A stretch of DNA of 64,000 nt from contig JAXCHI010000003.1 in NCBI GenBank assembly GCA_033977065.1, forward strand, positions 448,001 through 512,000, in the 5' to 3' direction. Within the stretch, counting starts at the first letter, position 1. Each line of letters starts with the position of its first letter. The position numbers and the translations under genes were made by a program. This document shows, piece by piece, positions 22,900 through 27,126 of the stretch. The notes beneath the pieces were generated by a model that was not told the DNA's origin, made no database searches, and worked only from the letters and a program-made list of their open reading frames with translations. The DNA is from Candidatus Algichlamydia australiensis. Its GTDB lineage: Bacteria; Chlamydiota; Chlamydiia; Chlamydiales; JAJFMI01.

Positions 22900-23089
22900 A
22901 AACAATCATCCTACTCCTGGTTGGGGAGCTTAGTCAACAGATAAATAATAGATAGTCGAGGCTTTGACGTTAAAAAGAATAAAAAAATTTTCTGCCACAG
23001 ATTACTCGCCTCTGTTTTTTCAATTGACTGTTAAGTTTTTAAGTGAAAAATGGGTGTCACCAAGTAAATCTTAAATTTAGGAGTCTAAG

Positions 23090-23224
23090 ATGAAATTGAT
23101 TACTTTAAGCCTCGCTCTGTTTTGTGTGTGCGCAGGATTTTTGAGTGCTACGTATGCGAAAATTTGTCCAGAGGCAATCAGCACAGACTGCCCGTTTGGT
23201 AAAGGAAATAAAGGAAAAAAGTAG
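23090..23224 (+). CDS. Unannotated 44-aa secreted peptide with two Cys in the predicted mature part
   Basis: AGGAG SD 6 nt before ATG; MKLITLSLALFCVCAGFLSATYAKICPEAISTDCPFGKGNKGKK; hairpin downstream. Confidence 0.65.
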   Translation: MKLITLSLALFCVCAGFLSATYAKICPEAISTDCPFGKGNKGKK

Positions 23225-23240
23225 ATGGTTTTTTGCTCTC

Positions 23241-23265
23241 AGGACTCTCTTTTAAAGAGAGTCCT
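23241..23265. terminator. Hairpin between convergent genes
   Basis: aggactctcttt-t-aaagagagtcct perfect 12-bp arms. Confidence 0.6.
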
Positions 23266-23325
23266 CGGTTTGATTTCAAAAAGTTTTGCAGTCTCCTAGC
23301 CAATAGAAGACGGATTGCTACTTTT

Positions 23326-23746
23326 TCAGGTGTATGATTTTATTATACGTCTGAAGTTTATAACAGAGGGAAAAAGAGGCTCTGGCAAATTATCAAGATC
23401 AAACCACTCCCATGCTTCGCATTTGTGTGGCTCCATTACTTGAGGTGTACCAGTAAAACTTTCTACAATCATATGAATCGTGATGTAGTGCTTTTCCTCT
23501 TTTGCGAAGATCTCTGTTGTCCAGGGGCCGGGCTTTACTTTTTGCCGTAAGACCTGTCTCTTCTAAGAGTTCGCGCACTGCGCACTCTTCTGGCGTTTCG
23601 CCAAATTCAAGGTGCCCTCCCGGTGGAGCGTAGGCACCTGTTCCGTGGGCATTGATGCGCTTTCCAAGAAGAATTTTTCCTTTTTGTATTACATGAACAC
23701 CAATATCAACCAGTGGCTTTTTTGAAATTGTTGTTGCTTCTCTCAT
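23326..23746 (-). pseudogene. NUDIX hydrolase (NUDT15-like), frameshifted
   Basis: [29 protein letters not shown] box; continuation VKPGPW...[21 protein letters not shown] is in another frame; total length 3n+1. Confidence 0.8.
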
Positions 23747-24201
23747 TTTAAAGGAATCTTTTTGTTTTTATGTTTTTGTTTCACTATTTGATAACTTTCA
23801 GAAATTAAATGTGCTATTTGTGAGAATGATTTTTCTGAAGGATTGCAGATGGAGACCCAACACATCCAGCCGTAAACGGGATGGGGTGTTAATTGATTAA
23901 GTGAAGTAAAGTCGTAAGGTCCTTCGATAACTCCTCCTTTTGAAGGGCGTTTGGGGATAACTTCAAACAGCTCCAAAAAAGTAGGTTTTGAAATTCCAAA
24001 ATTTAATCGAAAAACGCCTTGTCGATCTAGGCTTGAAGCCTTGTCATTTTGCCCATCCTTCTCTTTGATGGTGCAAAAATAGGTGCCTCTTGGGCTTAGG
24101 TTATTTGGGTTATAAAAAAAGCTTGTTTCGCCCCAGGAATCAATCACTCGCAAATCATCAAACGTTTTTAATAAGTAGCAGGAAATAGCATTTGGGTTCA
24201 T
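23743..24201 (-). CDS. DUF6194-like protein
   Basis: [39 protein letters not shown]. Confidence 0.75.
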
Positions 24202-24293
24202 CAGTTTATTACTTTAGCATTTGAATCTAGAGAGATCAACTTCTTGATTTAGAAAAAAAGACAGGATATAGTTTGTTTTCTTAAAAGGTGTTT

Positions 24294-25163
24294 ATGAAAA
24301 AACTTGTTTTGTTTCTAATTTTAGTATTTTCATTAAAAGCAGAGGAAAACAAAATTATTTATCTTTTGTCTCCTCCTCGCTCTTGCTCAACTCTTTTTAT
24401 GAGGATAATTGCAAATCATGAGAGGATGGCAGTTTTTAACGAACCATCTCAGCGCTCTTACGTAAGGGTGCATCACCCGGAAGTAGAGCACTGGTGGCGA
24501 GAAGATGGCCCCAAAACTCACAAGGAGATGCAAAAGCTCCTCTATGAGCAGAGAAAAGAATCAAACGTATTTGTGAAGGAAATGAACTTTGCTGTTTATG
24601 ATTTGCTTCCAAATGAGCTGGAGTTCCTCCAAGATCCTAACGTCCATTTTGTTTTTTTAGTTCGCAATCCCCATGCCGTTGCAATTTCTATCTATAAAAA
24701 ATTAGAAAGTGTCTGGGATGATATGGATGATATCATGGGCATGAAGCAGTTATATGAGACATTTCAGCTTGCTAGAAGAGAGTCAGCAAATCCAGTAAGA
24801 GTTATTTTCAGTGAGCAAATTTATGAAAACCCAGAGAGAACAGTAAAGACTTTTTGCGACTGCTATAATTTTCCATTTAAAGAGAGTTTGCTGGAGTGGC
24901 ATCCTTATCCTGATGATTTTACTGGGGTAGAAGAGTGGCATGAATTTAAACGTTCTGATCAATTGTTTCACTGGCATGGAAATGCGATTCGTAGTAGCGG
25001 GATTGGTCGCCCCCAAGAGTATGAGCTAGACGAGTTGGGAAGACCCACATTTAATGAAATTAAAAATGAGTCTGACCGCGAAAAAACACGAGCCGTTTAT
25101 GAGAGGCAGCTTATTTGGTACAAAAAGTTTGTCAATAAAACTGGTCCATATTTAATCAAATAG
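24294..25163 (+). CDS. Secreted sulfotransferase-like protein
   Basis: Signal peptide; SPPRSCSTLFMR PAPS-binding loop, FNEP, FLVRNP. Confidence 0.75.
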   Translation: MKKLVLFLILVFSLKAEENKIIYLLSPPRSCSTLFMRIIANHERMAVFNEPSQRSYVRVHHPEVEHWWREDGPKTHKEMQKLLYEQRKESNVFVKEMNFAVYDLLPNELEFLQDPNVHFVFLVRNPHAVAISIYKKLESVWDDMDDIMGMKQLYETFQLARRESANPVRVIFSEQIYENPERTVKTFCDCYNFPFKESLLEWHPYPDDFTGVEEWHEFKRSDQLFHWHGNAIRSSGIGRPQEYELDELGRPTFNEIKNESDREKTRAVYERQLIWYKKFVNKTGPYLIK

Positions 25164-25225
25164 TCACAAACGAATATAGACTTGGAGCGTTTTGGCAAAG
25201 CTTTGCCAGGAATACGAACAGTTTT

Positions 25226-25256
25226 TTCAGTTGTACGATTAAATCGTACAACTGAA
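25226..25256. repeat. Palindrome P2, variant copy just after the Bro-N stop codon
   Basis: ttcagttgtacgatt-a-aatcgtacaactgaa, perfect 15-bp arms. Confidence 0.9.
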
Positions 25257-25257
25257 T

Positions 25258-26091
25258 TCATTCTATCTTAGGGCCATCAATAAAATTTGACGAGCTTAGT
25301 ACTTTTTTCCCGCTCTCCTTTTCGAGTTCATGTCGCGCATTTCCAGCAATTGTTCCGCCTGCTATAGCTGCTTCTCTGTTCTCTTCGAACCCTTGGGCAT
25401 CACGTTGAACGGATATTTCTGAAGTTGATGCTTCACCCAACATGGTAAAAATCAGCTCGAGATCTGTCATATGATCTCTTAAGTTTTCTCTTTTTAGGTT
25501 TTTAATTTTTTTATGTTCAGATGGTTTTACTCCAAAAGTTGCTTCAGAAATTTCAGCAGTAAGAATAGCATATTCTTTCTGCTTTTTTACACCTCTCTTT
25601 TCCCATTCCCCAGTAAGTTGCTCGCGAGTGGCAATCCCTCGCATCCTTCTTTCAATCCATTCATCGGGGTAGCCCTTTGCTTTGTAAAGTGCTCGCGTGC
25701 GCTTCGTTGCAAGCTCTGGATTTTCAATTTCTTTGATTCTTTCAAAGCCGACTCTTGCAAGCCATCGTTTTAGAGGTTCAGCTTTAGGCGATGGAATAGA
25801 TTGAATAATCCTAAAAAGCGTTTCTGTGTTGGCGGTATCGGTAGCCCTCATTCGTCCATCCGATGCTACTAATTTCAACCGTACGATTTTATCGTACGGT
25901 TGGATAAACCCTTCATCTTCAGTAAGTTTCTTCTTCAAGTCAGACCAATATCTTTTAGGGGTTAAGCTATCTGTTAATGTTTCAATGACATCAACGATAG
26001 AAAAATACCACTCGTCGTTGTAGATGATTTTTCGAATCCGTTTGCCCCGAAAAACTGCAATTTTGCCTGATTTTTGAATCTCTTGAATCAT
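25258..26091 (-). CDS. Bro-N domain protein (phage antirepressor-like)
   Basis: EWYFSIVDVI, YWSDLK, DGRMRATD, RIIQSIPSPKAEP, NLRDHMTDLEL; GGAG SD before ATG 26091. Confidence 0.88.
   Translation of the reverse strand: MIQEIQKSGKIAVFRGKRIRKIIYNDEWYFSIVDVIETLTDSLTPKRYWSDLKKKLTEDEGFIQPYDKIVRLKLVASDGRMRATDTANTETLFRIIQSIPSPKAEPLKRWLARVGFERIKEIENPELATKRTRALYKAKGYPDEWIERRMRGIATREQLTGEWEKRGVKKQKEYAILTAEISEATFGVKPSEHKKIKNLKRENLRDHMTDLELIFTMLGEASTSEISVQRDAQGFEENREAAIAGGTIAGNARHELEKESGKKVLSSSNFIDGPKIE
25876..25902. repeat. Palindrome P1 inside the Bro-N CDS (encodes QPYDKIVRL)
   Basis: caaccgtacgat-ttt-atcgtacggttg, perfect 12-bp arms. Confidence 0.95.
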
Positions 26092-26124
26092 ATTTTTCTC
26101 CAAAAGCGACTAAGGTTCAAAAAA

Positions 26125-26153
26125 AGGATAACTGTTAAGTTTGTTTTTTTCAA
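26125..26153 (-). promoter_or_regulatory. Predicted sigma66 promoter of the Bro-N gene; -35 box overlapped by palindrome P1
   Basis: TTGAAA-N17-TATCCT on the minus strand. Confidence 0.55.
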
Positions 26154-26180
26154 CCGTACGATTTTATCGTACGGTTGAAA
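26148..26180. repeat. Palindrome P1, exact copy upstream of the Bro-N gene
   Basis: 26148-26177 identical to 25873-25902 (30 bp); arms extend to 15 bp. Confidence 0.95.
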
Positions 26181-26181
26181 T

Positions 26182-27126
26182 TTACAAGCGGATGTAGACT
26201 TGTGCGCCTTTTGCGGGGCGCTCGTTTTGATGGTCCCAGTGGGGTGTTTTGGCAAAGTCTTGCCAGATGCGTGGGTAGTCCTTGCGGCCGTAAAGGCGAT
26301 CAAGCGCTTGTTTGGGCTGCGCTGGGATCCAGATGCGGGTTGGGCCAAAAGCGCACCGTTTGCGATTTTGAATTTGAGAAGCTGCGTAGGTGTCATTAGG
26401 ATAATCGCGGCGAAAAAAAGGAGAGCGATGGTAGTAAGTCTCTTCCTCTTTTCTAAAAAAGAAAATATCAATGAAGGGAAAGGTCCACTCGCTTCCCATT
26501 TTTTTTCCATTTAGCGGTGAGAGTTTATAAAAGTCACCTTCATCGAGGTAGTGCAGGGCAATGCCCTGGCCAAGTAGCTCTTTTTTTAAAGAGAGAAGGG
26601 TGGTCTCATCTTGCTCAAGCATGTAGATATCGAGGTCATCATCCCAGGGGATGAGGCCTTTGTGGCGCACGGCTCCAAGCAGAGTGCCACCGCCTGCCCA
26701 GTAGGTAAGATCGTATTTAGTAAAAAGTTTGTCGACTTTTGCCATGAAATTATAGAGTTGTTTGGCAGTTTCTTTTGGGAGTGGAGGAATGTCGTGAATG
26801 GTTTTGGGAAGTTTTGCACACGCTTTTTTGATACGATGTGCAGAGATTTTTTTTGGCGCGTAGTGTTTGTATCCTGTGCGATTGGCGAGGCTGCCTAATT
26901 CTTTTTTTGTGAAAGAGCTGTTGTCAAGGATCACAATGGGAGTGAGGTTGTGGTAATGGTCAAGTGCTTCGATTTCTCTTTGAATTTGCTTTAGAGTTTT
27001 GCCCTTGGGGTTAAGAAGTGTGGCGTCTGTCTGTTTAGCCAATTTTTTGGCGTGGGCGGGAGCGTTAATGAGTAGGCGCGCTTGGAGCTGGGCGAGCAGG
27101 AGTAGGAGAGGTAGGTACTTCAGCAT
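26182..27126 (-). CDS. LicD family nucleotidyl/phosphocholine transferase
   Basis: GGTLLGAVRHKGLIPWDDDLD, PFIDIF; N-terminal signal peptide. Confidence 0.88.
   Translation of the reverse strand: MLKYLPLLLLLAQLQARLLINAPAHAKKLAKQTDATLLNPKGKTLKQIQREIEALDHYHNLTPIVILDNSSFTKKELGSLANRTGYKHYAPKKISAHRIKKACAKLPKTIHDIPPLPKETAKQLYNFMAKVDKLFTKYDLTYWAGGGTLLGAVRHKGLIPWDDDLDIYMLEQDETTLLSLKKELLGQGIALHYLDEGDFYKLSPLNGKKMGSEWTFPFIDIFFFRKEEETYYHRSPFFRRDYPNDTYAASQIQNRKRCAFGPTRIWIPAQPKQALDRLYGRKDYPRIWQDFAKTPHWDHQNERPAKGAQVYIRL

Follow-up and report, generated by a model that had tools for sequence, protein, structure and literature searches.

A palindrome of 25 to 33 bp, held in codons 63 to 73, is a new and family-wide feature of DinD/PDC-S13 genes, in which selection keeps it at the nucleic acid level. 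We describe it from the Bro-N gene of Candidatus Algichlamydia australiensis, where two free-standing copies, P1 and P2, bracket the gene that carries the third. No such arrangement of a coding palindrome with two bracketing free copies was found in the portion of the printed literature covered, and at abstract level there was nothing relevant on a palindrome in Bro-N coding sequence or on a palindrome, inverted repeat or hairpin in dinD or pcsA. The whole stretch of DNA analyzed, hereafter the window, comprises 64,000 nucleotides.

The first-pass annotation had reported three copies of the palindrome, and all of them were found again, at 26148-26180, 25876-25902 and 25226-25256. The internal palindrome (25876..25902, no strand) has 12-bp arms and a 3-nt loop and corresponds to codons Q64 to L72 (QPYDKIVRL). 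P1 (26148..26180, no strand), whose 15-bp arms match perfectly around a 3-nt loop, starts 1 nt past the stop codon of a LicD-family gene, or 4 nt if the 12-bp core is considered, and a gap of 56 nt separates its end from the ATG of the downstream Bro-N gene. Its identity to the internal copy, which had also been claimed, extends over 30 of 30 nt (25873-25902 and 26148-26177). P2 (25226..25256, no strand; 15-bp arms) belongs to another class than P1 and, in agreement with the annotation, lies 1 nt past the TGA of the gene, differs by three compensatory pair changes and reads QLYDLIVQLK; 29 of its 33 nt are identical to the internal element of three chlamydial homologues (L007, L031 and L032). 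Both free copies are clean 33-nt modules devoid of adjoining gene sequence, and their 15-bp arms exceed those of the coding copy. The core GTACGATNNNATCGTAC occurs three times in the window, against 0.01 expected, and none of 100 shuffles gave three occurrences. These three are also the only exact matches in the whole 1.8-Mb genome, which has one further site with one mismatch on another contig, and among its 111 perfect palindromes (arms of at least 10, loop of at most 5) only P1, the internal copy and P2 were of this type. A common dispersed genomic repeat unrelated to Bro-N, which the annotation had named as refuting its reading, was ruled out, the three copies sitting at a single locus. 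Folded as single-stranded DNA, the three copies gave -16.9, -13.0 and -14.1 kcal/mol (z = -6.1 to -7.2).

The gene itself (25258..26091, minus strand, ATG at 26091) encodes 277 aa; a TTG at 26103 is an alternative upstream start, giving a Bro-N protein of 281 aa. The Bro-N assignment was borne out by Pfam (PF02498, E 2.2e-9, 38.2 bits against a cutoff of 25.6, residues 19-112), and the gene is present in single copy in the genome. The PADLOC PDC-S13 model PDLC04920 matched residues 7-274 on profile positions 3-270 of 286 (E 8.9e-115), and the window protein scored 15.3 bits against the NCBIfam DinD equivalog NF008573, below the cutoff of 242. The window gene belongs to the DinD/PDC-S13 group, stands alone and is horizontally mobile. 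PDC-S13, which includes E. coli DinD (PcsA), with which the window gene has the Bro-N domain and the profile match in common, is so far a candidate phage defense family; its genes sit alone, often inside restriction-modification or CRISPR-cas operons. Our literature search found no paper on PDC-S13, and a term search of the main text of the preprint of Payne et al. (2024; 10.1101/2024.01.29.577857) gave no mention of Bro-N, PDC-S, DinD or palindromes.

The AF2 model of the protein (pLDDT 90.5) gave DdrC of Deinococcus radiodurans (PDB 7qvb, 7udi and 8u0g) as the sole significant fold match in the PDB, nearly over the full length (Foldseek E 3.6e-6, probability 1.0), with low TM-scores of 0.35 to 0.51. 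A profile search of the PDB returned no match at E <= 1, hence no sequence likeness to DdrC. The homodimer prediction score was 0.70, against 0.25 for the best control. Among proteins of solved structure, 20 of 30 pairs and 1 of 23 single chains attained that mark. The repeat predictions concurred in at least 70% of contacts, with a partner pLDDT of at least 78. Resemblance to the solved DdrC dimer may account for part of this score. The models thus predict a Bro-N winged-helix-like N-terminal domain followed by a helical C-terminal domain, with a DdrC-like fold and a symmetric homodimer. DdrC is described, in the part consulted of PMC11347143, as a homodimer that binds DNA breaks. What it shares with the window protein is the predicted fold and the homodimer, known for DdrC and predicted here; it differs in that it binds pairs of DNA breaks, that is, lesions rather than sequences, and has no defined site. 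The peptide encoded by the palindrome is placed within the Bro-N DNA-binding domain, where it forms a short helix and the first strand of the beta-hairpin "wing."

Bacterial, archaeal and viral-contig homologues, about 100 in all, carried the internal palindrome, the relatives examined being the best 80 of more than 520 in the window's clade and the best 80 of 233 in the dinD clade. Perfect arms of 6 to 14 bp around the same central codon were seen in 84 of 87 distinct homologue segments. Pair cells were paired in 91.8% of 870 cases, compared to 77.5% in shuffles, none of which (0/500) was as high, and sliding the pair partners lowered pairing to 20 to 35%. Nine of the ten pairs had changed on both sides, with 115 double-change cells where 23.3 were expected. 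Over 88 distinct coding sequences, synonymous sites were saturated except at codons 66-70 and 73, where TCC (94%), GAA (95%), AAA (98%), ATC (100%), GGA (100%) and AAA (94%) were conserved; the palindrome segment is the most conserved DNA of the gene and its sole synonymous-constrained spot. The same central 15 nt recurred in 46 of these 88 sequences, and homologues from viral contigs, at 44% protein identity, retained the same 33 nt. Amino acid pairs co-varied so as to retain the palindrome (Y/V, S/G, S/R, V/H and T/C), and these peptide changes look like passive consequences of base-pair upkeep. The palindromic constraint that the annotation had proposed to look for among homologues was thereby confirmed, while the hypervariability expected of the same segment was contradicted. 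Mismatch cells were G-T in 15 cases and A-C in 13 in the window's clade; this lack of a wobble bias, together with free copies lying in spacers and upstream of promoter-like sites, points to an element that acts as DNA rather than RNA.

An equivalent was found in the dinD clade, including the dinD gene of E. coli K-12. The E. coli-type DinD matched the PDC-S13 models PDLC04919 (E 2.4e-121) and PDLC04920 (E 2.2e-16), it has a Bro-N domain as does the window protein, and its model again gave DdrC as the sole significant PDB fold match (E 9.4e-5). The clade has its own, different co-varying palindrome, with 14-bp arms and 904 of 1,050 cells in Watson-Crick pairing (mismatch cells, 29 G-T and 30 A-C). 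It maps to that same structural element, in which the first beta-hairpin strand comes after a short helix. Since sequence homology between the clades is weak, the equivalence of the two palindromes is drawn from Bro-N profile coordinates and matching secondary structure; hhalign of the window protein to the dinD-clade alignment gave a weak match (probability 12%, E 0.0023) in the C-terminal part only.

At the window locus, the gene forms part of a one-gene cassette of 965 bp (25217..26181, minus strand) consisting of P1, a promoter-like site, the gene and P2, and delimited from repeats D2 and D4, the sequence and the tail translations. It begins 4 nt before the P1 core and stops 9 nt past P2, between duplicated tails of the LicD-family gene (26182..27126, minus strand; Pfam LicD, E 4.5e-19). 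The intact tail comprises the last 90 nt of that gene (26182-26271, minus strand; RIWQDFAKTPHWDHQNERPAKGAQVYIRL up to the stop codon), and the LicD orthologue of a same-genus genome (G001) has a like ending. The other tail is an orphan remnant (25164..25216, minus strand; WQSFAKTLQVYIRL up to the stop codon; repeat D2, 85%; repeat D4, 84%) that lacks 14 codons and whose frame is broken at the start. P1 and the internal copy still agree at 30 of 30 nt, though the LicD tails have diverged to 84 to 85%. By blastn of L015 against the window, a 3.27-kb stretch (22918..26193) holding a DUF6194 and a sulfotransferase gene (both by Pfam), small ORFs, the LicD remnant and the cassette was missing from G001, where LicD and SppA lie about 190 bp apart in a spacer that is unalignable to the window save for 8 nt directly past the LicD stop. 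A cassette-sized empty site was not found in G001, as the whole 3.27-kb stretch is missing there. We read the ORF at 23399-23746 within that stretch as putatively Nudix-like.

The statement of the annotation that no integrase or transposase is visible held for the whole window. The two tyrosine recombinases of the genome (open frames of 294 and 312 aa) lie outside it, far from the locus, and the genome, which is 93.4% complete, had no match to the Y1 transposase family PF01797. No excision or inversion joint of this organism was seen in the contigs of four runs, a search of contigs with little power. The contigs of run X1, which may be the source of the window sequence, span the locus as in the window; contig pieces of run X2 end at the 30-nt repeat shared by P1 and the internal copy, as short-word assembly would produce; and the few joints found stem from homologues of other organisms, at less than 95% likeness. 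In blastp clustering of 337 flanking ORFs no cluster exceeded four, so that no conserved partner gene emerged. The window gene has LicD and sulfotransferase neighbors and no defense operon beside it. Among 75 other loci, the gene lay between hsdM and hsdS (L035 and L103), next to other methylase or restriction genes (L057, L074, L087 and L098) or inside cas operons (L064, L066, L073, L076 and L086), and also in housekeeping surroundings; the Pfam search of nearest neighbors covered 150 of 161 ORFs, that is, all but ten from L005-L010 and one more. Imperfect direct repeats of 30 to 226 bp were present at about 10 of 88 loci, and these other loci had no terminal palindromes.

Flanking copies beside an intact gene occurred at 1 of 86 loci and, in a set of loci chosen by motif, at 3 of 122. 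Free copies, which are long perfect palindromes with 14- to 16-bp arms and take either loop orientation, were located upstream of genes, at points where genes are truncated, and in arrays lacking a gene. The upstream copy matched the class of its own gene in two cases (the window and L138) and was of another class in two (L264 and L186). The gene-less array at metagenome locus L263 holds at least nine palindromes in 660 nt, and those at L265, L266 and L248 hold two or three each, within spacers of 200 to 300 bp; such arrays mix palindrome classes. By our own reading, P1 has a 34-nt stretch in common with one array palindrome of L263. At 13 of 24 noncanonical sites the element lay within a gene copy that was degenerate, through truncation, rearrangement or otherwise, and in several instances the gene break coincided with the element (L144, L166, L195, L198, L213, L174 and L211). 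Genomes with free copies carry several paralogues and fragments, for example, eight matches in a 0.7-Mb genome, and fragments of a second allele with the element adjoin genes at L222 and L227. In the clearest chlamydial module swap (L033 and L085, 38% identity in the N part and 89% in the C part), no breakpoint at the element was seen, the break being near residue 90.

The promoter overlapping P1 that had been proposed was only partly upheld. The site, TTGAAA-N17-TATCCT (26125..26153, minus strand), exists with 9 of 12 matches, has its first hexamer in the right arm of P1 and is the only promoter-like site before the gene, but such sites were not enriched in this region (2 found, 2.1 expected in shuffles). 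P1 itself is upstream of the predicted transcription start. In a simple scan for intrinsic terminators, a GC-containing stem with a T-run behind it, P2 was terminator-like on the plus strand only, i.e., for the convergent sulfotransferase gene, and P1 on neither strand; both are trailed by A-runs on the gene strand. A LexA operator was ruled out for P1, as the 93.4%-complete genome had no match to PF01726. A known RNA family was likewise ruled out: the sole two Rfam matches, both at P1 (E 0.31 and 0.38), were at chance level and fell well short of the gathering scores.

We tentatively favor the reading that the element is a DNA-level hairpin, cruciform or palindromic cis-element inside the gene, a putative docking site of the gene's own dimeric product. 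We infer both the binding and its effect: the dimeric DNA-binding product would most likely dock on the internal palindrome, giving feedback control or sensing of the DNA state that recombination could not separate from the gene. P1 and P2 would be free-standing members of the same element family and mark both ends of a cassette inserted into the LicD 3' end. P1, which matches the internal copy exactly and extends into the promoter-like site, may in addition allow autorepression at the promoter, and P2, being of the other class, could be a relic, a terminator-type hairpin or both. Conservation, covariation, synonymous constraint, the lack of a wobble bias and the dinD-clade palindrome support docking, as do the DdrC-like fold, the predicted homodimer and the match of P1 to the internal copy at the promoter-like site. 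It is weakened by upstream copies of a foreign class in two of four cases, by gene truncations and rearrangements ending at the element in several loci, by the recognition of lesions rather than sequences by DdrC, by the low TM-scores and by a promoter-like site not above chance. The long perfect arms of free copies and the mixed-class arrays lacking a gene are less expected of an operator than of a hairpin or recombination element, and control of the P1 type cannot be the general function, since 85 of 86 loci have no promoter copy. The autoregulatory circuit of the first-pass annotation is plausible at this locus, where P1 equals the internal copy at the sole promoter-like site, but its allele-matched flanking copies failed to appear beyond 1 of 86 loci.

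Two alternatives stand beside docking. It is possible, though doubtful, that P1 and P2 are by-products of gene turnover or conversion which, if kept, act as ordinary terminator or stabilizer hairpins for the LicD, Bro-N and sulfotransferase genes; this covers the flanking copies only and can be combined with any reading of the internal element. The likeness of P2 to the element of other chlamydial alleles rather than to that of its own gene points this way, as do its terminator-like character on the plus strand, the foreign-class upstream copies (L264 and L186) and the second-allele fragments beside genes (L222 and L227). The element is, moreover, the longest DNA stretch common to diverged alleles and so a natural recombination anchor, and the duplicated-tail scar fits one-sided homologous recombination. 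Against this, both flanking copies are clean 33-nt modules perfected to 15-bp arms, P1 is followed on the gene strand by an A-run instead of a T-run, and it has stayed intact over 30 of 30 nt while the LicD tails decayed. A serious rival, if a somewhat unlikely one, is that the element is a site of recombination or mobility, a small hairpin module like attC or REP/BIME, with P1 and P2 as ends of a mobile cassette and the internal copy as a third site. The 965-bp insert ending at P1 and P2 between the LicD tails, the perfect 14- to 16-bp arms of free copies, the gene-less arrays (L263, L265, L266 and L248), the degenerate gene copies at 13 of 24 noncanonical sites, several of them broken at the element, and the paralogues and fragments in genomes with free copies all argue for it. 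Against it, only 1 of 86 (or 3 of 122 motif-selected) loci have extra copies by an intact gene, no recombinase is linked and no Y1 transposase was found, recombination between P1 and the internal site would wreck the gene, the mapped module swap breaks near residue 90, about 10 other direct-repeat loci lack terminal palindromes, and the features that define attC and REP are missing. The one-gene mobile cassette of the annotation fits this locus, with its 965-bp insert and P1/P2 ends, but not the general setting of the family, and it is limited by the lack of a linked recombinase and of an excision joint in the contigs.

A bolder form of this idea, which we consider unlikely, would make the palindrome an undescribed hairpin DNA module with two states, free or fused in frame into a pan-prokaryotic DinD/PDC-S13 gene whose DdrC-like product is its putative binding or processing partner; it would resemble REP-RAYT without an HUH transposase or integrase and move one-gene cassettes, so that P1 and P2 would be true ends and gene and attachment site one piece of DNA. 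An RNA hairpin in the mRNA, acting in translation pausing, stability or processing or as an inhibitory RNA like those of type III toxin-antitoxin systems, appears improbable. All homologues have a stable stem-loop about 190 nt into the mRNA, P1 and P2 each follow a stop codon and could lie within 3' untranslated regions, and one class (L111-L114) has a T-G cell in the sense strand, but neither clade has a wobble bias, where an RNA stem should tolerate G-U far above A-C; P1 is upstream of the predicted transcription start, free copies take either loop orientation and no Rfam family matched. Very improbable indeed is the proposal that the palindrome-coded peptide recognizes the very DNA that encodes it, with site and specificity altering in step, or that the copies serve hairpin-templated diversification of the peptide. 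The peptide does lie within the Bro-N DNA-binding domain and co-changes with the site by construction; the segment, however, is dominated by one DNA sequence and is not hypervariable, a result that also tells against the diversification put forward in the annotation. Its peptide changes look like a passive result of pair upkeep, flanking copies do not track the class of the gene, and the run contigs gave no sign of alternative alleles.

Several known systems resemble parts of this arrangement. The attC site of integrons is an imperfect palindrome of 57 to 141 nt that has extrahelical bases and whose R''/R' cores keep a fixed order. Like attC sites, including integrase-less attC clusters, the present elements are hairpins at the ends of single-gene cassettes, with variable sequence, constant shape and gene-less clusters, and by our own reading 6 of the 7 outer positions on either side of P1 resemble the attC core. 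In contrast to attC, they are perfect palindromes of 27 to 35 nt without extrahelical bases, one is in frame inside a gene, and the order of the outer motifs is reversed in P2 and many other members; the genome has no integron integrase, its only tyrosine recombinases being the two outside the window. REP/BIME elements with RAYT likewise combine short palindromes flanking the gene of a presumed binder with mosaic spacer clusters, but they number hundreds of copies, compared to three here, all at this locus, and the window protein is no HUH/Y1 enzyme and has the element embedded in its coding sequence. Rickettsia palindromic elements are also palindromic DNA read through as protein; those, as insertions, are dispersed over many unrelated genes within a single genus, whereas here one position of one gene family is occupied in bacteria and archaea under purifying selection. 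One-sided homologous recombination with tail displacement would also leave an insert bracketed by two diverged 3' ends of a neighbor gene, and differs in that palindromes between tails and gene are seen only at the locus described here. Closest in logic to docking are genes that hold the DNA site of their own product, such as pT181 repC, phiX174 gene A (origin) and P22 gene 3 (pac site), and lacO2 in lacZ as a further DNA site within coding sequence: the cognate site, in part a hairpin, stays linked to the gene. We know of no initiator, terminase or repressor activity for a Bro-N/PDC-S13 gene.

The element is a probable cis-acting DNA element within a coding sequence, kept across bacteria and archaea at a cost in amino acids, and as such a second layer of information in the gene. 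It occurs in a widespread family, linked to DNA damage through E. coli dinD and to candidate defense functions and common in defense islands, and the equivalent element in dinD of E. coli K-12 makes the question directly accessible in a common laboratory strain. A role as a recombination site, if true, would account for the spread of integrase-less single-gene cassettes between phyla and domains. If the protein binds its own element, this would provide a first handle on what DinD/PDC-S13 proteins recognize and a model of regulation that is not lost on horizontal transfer.

On the gene (minus) strand, the window reads in the order LicD stop, P1, promoter-like site, Bro-N gene (25258..26091), stop and P2, P1 and P2 being free-standing palindromes that bracket the gene. 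P1 (26148-26180), whose palindrome is perfect over 15-bp arms, is identical over 30 nt to the internal copy (25876-25902), which has 12-bp arms and occupies codons Q64-L72. P2 (25226-25256), also with 15-bp arms, differs in its loop and by three compensatory pair changes; its nearest match (29 of 33 nt) is the element inside the gene in other chlamydial alleles. The first-pass annotation had described all three, and its description was right in every detail checked. The core common to the three copies has three occurrences in the window, where 0.01 would be expected, and no further mismatch-free core was found in the 1.8-Mb genome, whose 111 perfect palindromes with arms of at least 10 bp include only these three of this type. 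Outside the window, the same genome carries a different, dispersed 40-bp perfect palindrome in three copies (contigs C2:110672, C3:95871 and C3:149625), with 28-bp shorter versions at C2:110271 and C4:453479. The element seems to interfere with short-read assembly: the 30-nt repeat common to P1 and the internal copy is the break point of assembled pieces in sequencing run X2, and a contig of the same-genus genome G001 (L011) ends within that genome's own Bro-N gene, near codon 57 and immediately ahead of the element.

We extracted the DNA under codons 58 to 76 from 101 homologues, giving 87 distinct sequences. Perfect arms of 6 to 14 bp around the same central codon were present in 84 of these, and the remaining three, all chlamydial, carried an imperfect palindrome. 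Over the central ten pairs, pairing was intact in 91.8% of 870 cells; shuffles gave 77.5% (none of 500 reached the observed value) and slid partners 20 to 35%. Changes on both sides were seen in nine of the ten pairs, and double-change cells numbered 115 against 23.3 expected. Some pair switches were synonymous (CAA CTG with CAG TTG, or the reverse), others entailed paired amino acid replacements (Y/V, S/G, S/R, V/H, and T/C), the resulting peptides spanning QPYDKIVRL, EVSEKIGQL, and QSVTNCHRL. Synonymous sites were saturated throughout 88 distinct coding sequences except at codons 66 to 70 and 73, each represented by a single codon in 94 to 100% of the sequences, and viral-contig homologues with 44% protein identity retained the same 33 nt. 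Mismatch cells showed no wobble bias (15 G-T versus 13 A-C), which favors the DNA over an RNA stem as the target of selection. We conclude firmly that the element is selected as a nucleic acid, at the level of the DNA. At abstract level, we found no published description of this in-gene palindrome.

The Escherichia coli K-12 dinD gene likewise contains a single palindrome whose arms reach 6 bp or more, at codons 61 to 66, extending to 14-bp arms over D59-V68 with one mismatch. In the dinD clade, 80 loci gave 75 distinct segments, in which 904 of the 1,050 cells of these 14 pairs were Watson-Crick, with several alternative pair types and wobble bias again absent (29 versus 30). The dinD palindrome differs in sequence from that of the window, and profile-profile comparison of the clades shows weak similarity (probability, 12%); yet both consist of Bro-N proteins, both match PDC-S13 models, and the models of DinD and of the window protein both have DdrC as best fold match. 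In both predicted structures, the palindrome encodes a short helix and the first strand of a beta-hairpin, after a long helix. The conserved palindrome is a feature of the gene family.

The window's Bro-N gene product, 277 amino acids with a Bro-N domain, gave a full-length match to the PADLOC phage defense candidate PDC-S13 (E value, 8.9e-115), while the NCBIfam DinD model scored only 15.3 bits, below its cutoff of 242. Its AlphaFold model, built from 79 sequences, reached a pLDDT of 90.5, and the sole significant matches in a PDB fold search were three Deinococcus DdrC entries (E values, 3.6e-6 to 9.3e-5). DdrC is described as homodimeric, with pairs of DNA breaks as its binding target (PMC11347143). 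A homodimer of the window protein was predicted with a score of 0.70 versus 0.25 for the best control; among proteins of solved structure, this mark was attained by 20 of the 30 known as pairs and 1 of the 23 known as single chains. Runs agreed on at least 70% of contacts, with a partner pLDDT of at least 78. This score may be partly owed to the solved DdrC dimer.

The element is firmly established as a module that exists outside the gene too. Allowing up to 6 substitutions in 27 nt, or up to 3 in any family 19-mer, extra copies no more than 2 kb from the gene were found at 1 of 86 loci, that of the window. The commonest 19-mer, scanned against the collection, gave at least 122 loci with 123 sites, 99 of them at the canonical in-gene position. 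Of the other 24, 13 lay in gene copies that were truncated, rearranged or degenerate in some other way, and several of these copies broke exactly at the element; 3 were upstream of an intact gene (L138, L186, and L235); 5 had no gene nearby and were mostly beside palindromes of other sequence classes; and 3 resembled chance or terminator hairpins, about 4 chance hits being expected. In metagenomes, the window's own 21-mer yielded seven loci: one canonical gene, one gene fragment, three isolated copies, L264, where a copy precedes by 7 nt the start of a gene carrying an internal element of a different class, and L263, with at least nine family palindromes in 660 nt, one sharing 34 nt with P1. 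No Bro-N gene was present in the 1.76 kb of L263 covered; its tandem palindromes (1100-1760) abut as class pairs in fixed order, and the array is open throughout in the gene's reading frame (plus-strand ORFs 1136-1339 and 1567-1758). Free copies occurred in 200- to 300-bp spacers alongside other family-type palindromes, in genomes with 0 to 8 protein matches, paralogues and gene fragments counted, and tended to have longer arms (perfect over 14 to 16 bp) than coding copies (7 bp in 44 of 87).

LicD and SppA are about 190 bp apart in G001 versus 3.27 kb in the window, where the stretch absent from G001 (22918-26193) contains genes for a DUF6194 protein and a sulfotransferase (both by Pfam), a putative Nudix-like ORF (23399-23746), and the cassette. 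The last 90 nt of LicD recur immediately beyond P2 as a decayed, shortened remnant, translating as WQSFAKTLQVYIRL and a stop, with repeat segments 84 to 85% identical; the 965-bp P1-gene-P2 piece (25217..26181) thus sits between two LicD tails. Imperfect direct repeats of local DNA, 30 to 226 bp long and the same kind of scar, bracket the gene in nine other loci of 88 tested (L062, L109, L085, L038, L080, L066, L082, L058, and L070), none with end palindromes. Both genomes have the 8 nt TTTCAACC after the LicD stop (window 26178-26185; G001 locus L015, about 1478-1488), the rest of the spacer being unalignable, so part of the left arm of P1 may predate the insertion.

The gene is single copy in the window's genome and patchy among relatives, being matched in 8 of 41 same-order genomes, the window's included. 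Five of the eight, from five different families, have near-full-length matches (46 to 77% identity), one with an in-frame TAG. The species-genome collection contained at least 520 relatives, the best 80 of which (58 to 80% identity) came from Chlamydiae, candidate-phyla-radiation bacteria, Omnitrophota, Planctomycetota, Proteobacteria, Bacteroidota, and DPANN archaea; viral-contig relatives numbered only 15. No conserved neighbor gene was found across homologue loci, the gene being solitary among housekeeping genes or within restriction-modification and CRISPR-cas operons. In two chlamydial pairs (L033/L085 and L006/L008) the N-terminal module is swapped, with residues 10 to 62 38% identical, residues 75 to 270 85 to 89% identical with nearly identical DNA, and the break near residue 90. 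The 0.7-Mb genome G043 has eight matches, most of them stop-containing fragments, which suggests that a very small genome has repeatedly acquired the gene and let it decay. Closely upstream of one homologue (L096, 1816-1927), beside an integrase gene, three 25-bp palindromes of one pattern stand in a row and look like operators of some other regulator; upstream of a chlamydial one (L085, 808-1526), a 22-bp palindrome occurs four times at 180- to 290-bp spacing.

A recombination site would fit the long perfect arms, the palindrome arrays, the gene truncation points at the element and the cassette shape of the window locus, but flanking copies are rare and no recombinase accompanies them, and we consider this unlikely. 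A role in RNA is disfavored by the pairing statistics and seems improbable. P1 and P2 themselves could be functionless by-products of allele turnover, an account that can stand beside every interpretation of the internal element and that we consider somewhat doubtful.

We tentatively favor the reading that the element is the cognate site of the gene's own predicted-dimeric, DdrC-like product, since this protein is the sole factor traveling with the element across domains of life, since the element varies in sequence between clades while keeping its symmetry, and since P1 is located on a promoter-like site. The role that we infer for the element is that of a sequence which the protein encoded around it would recognize.
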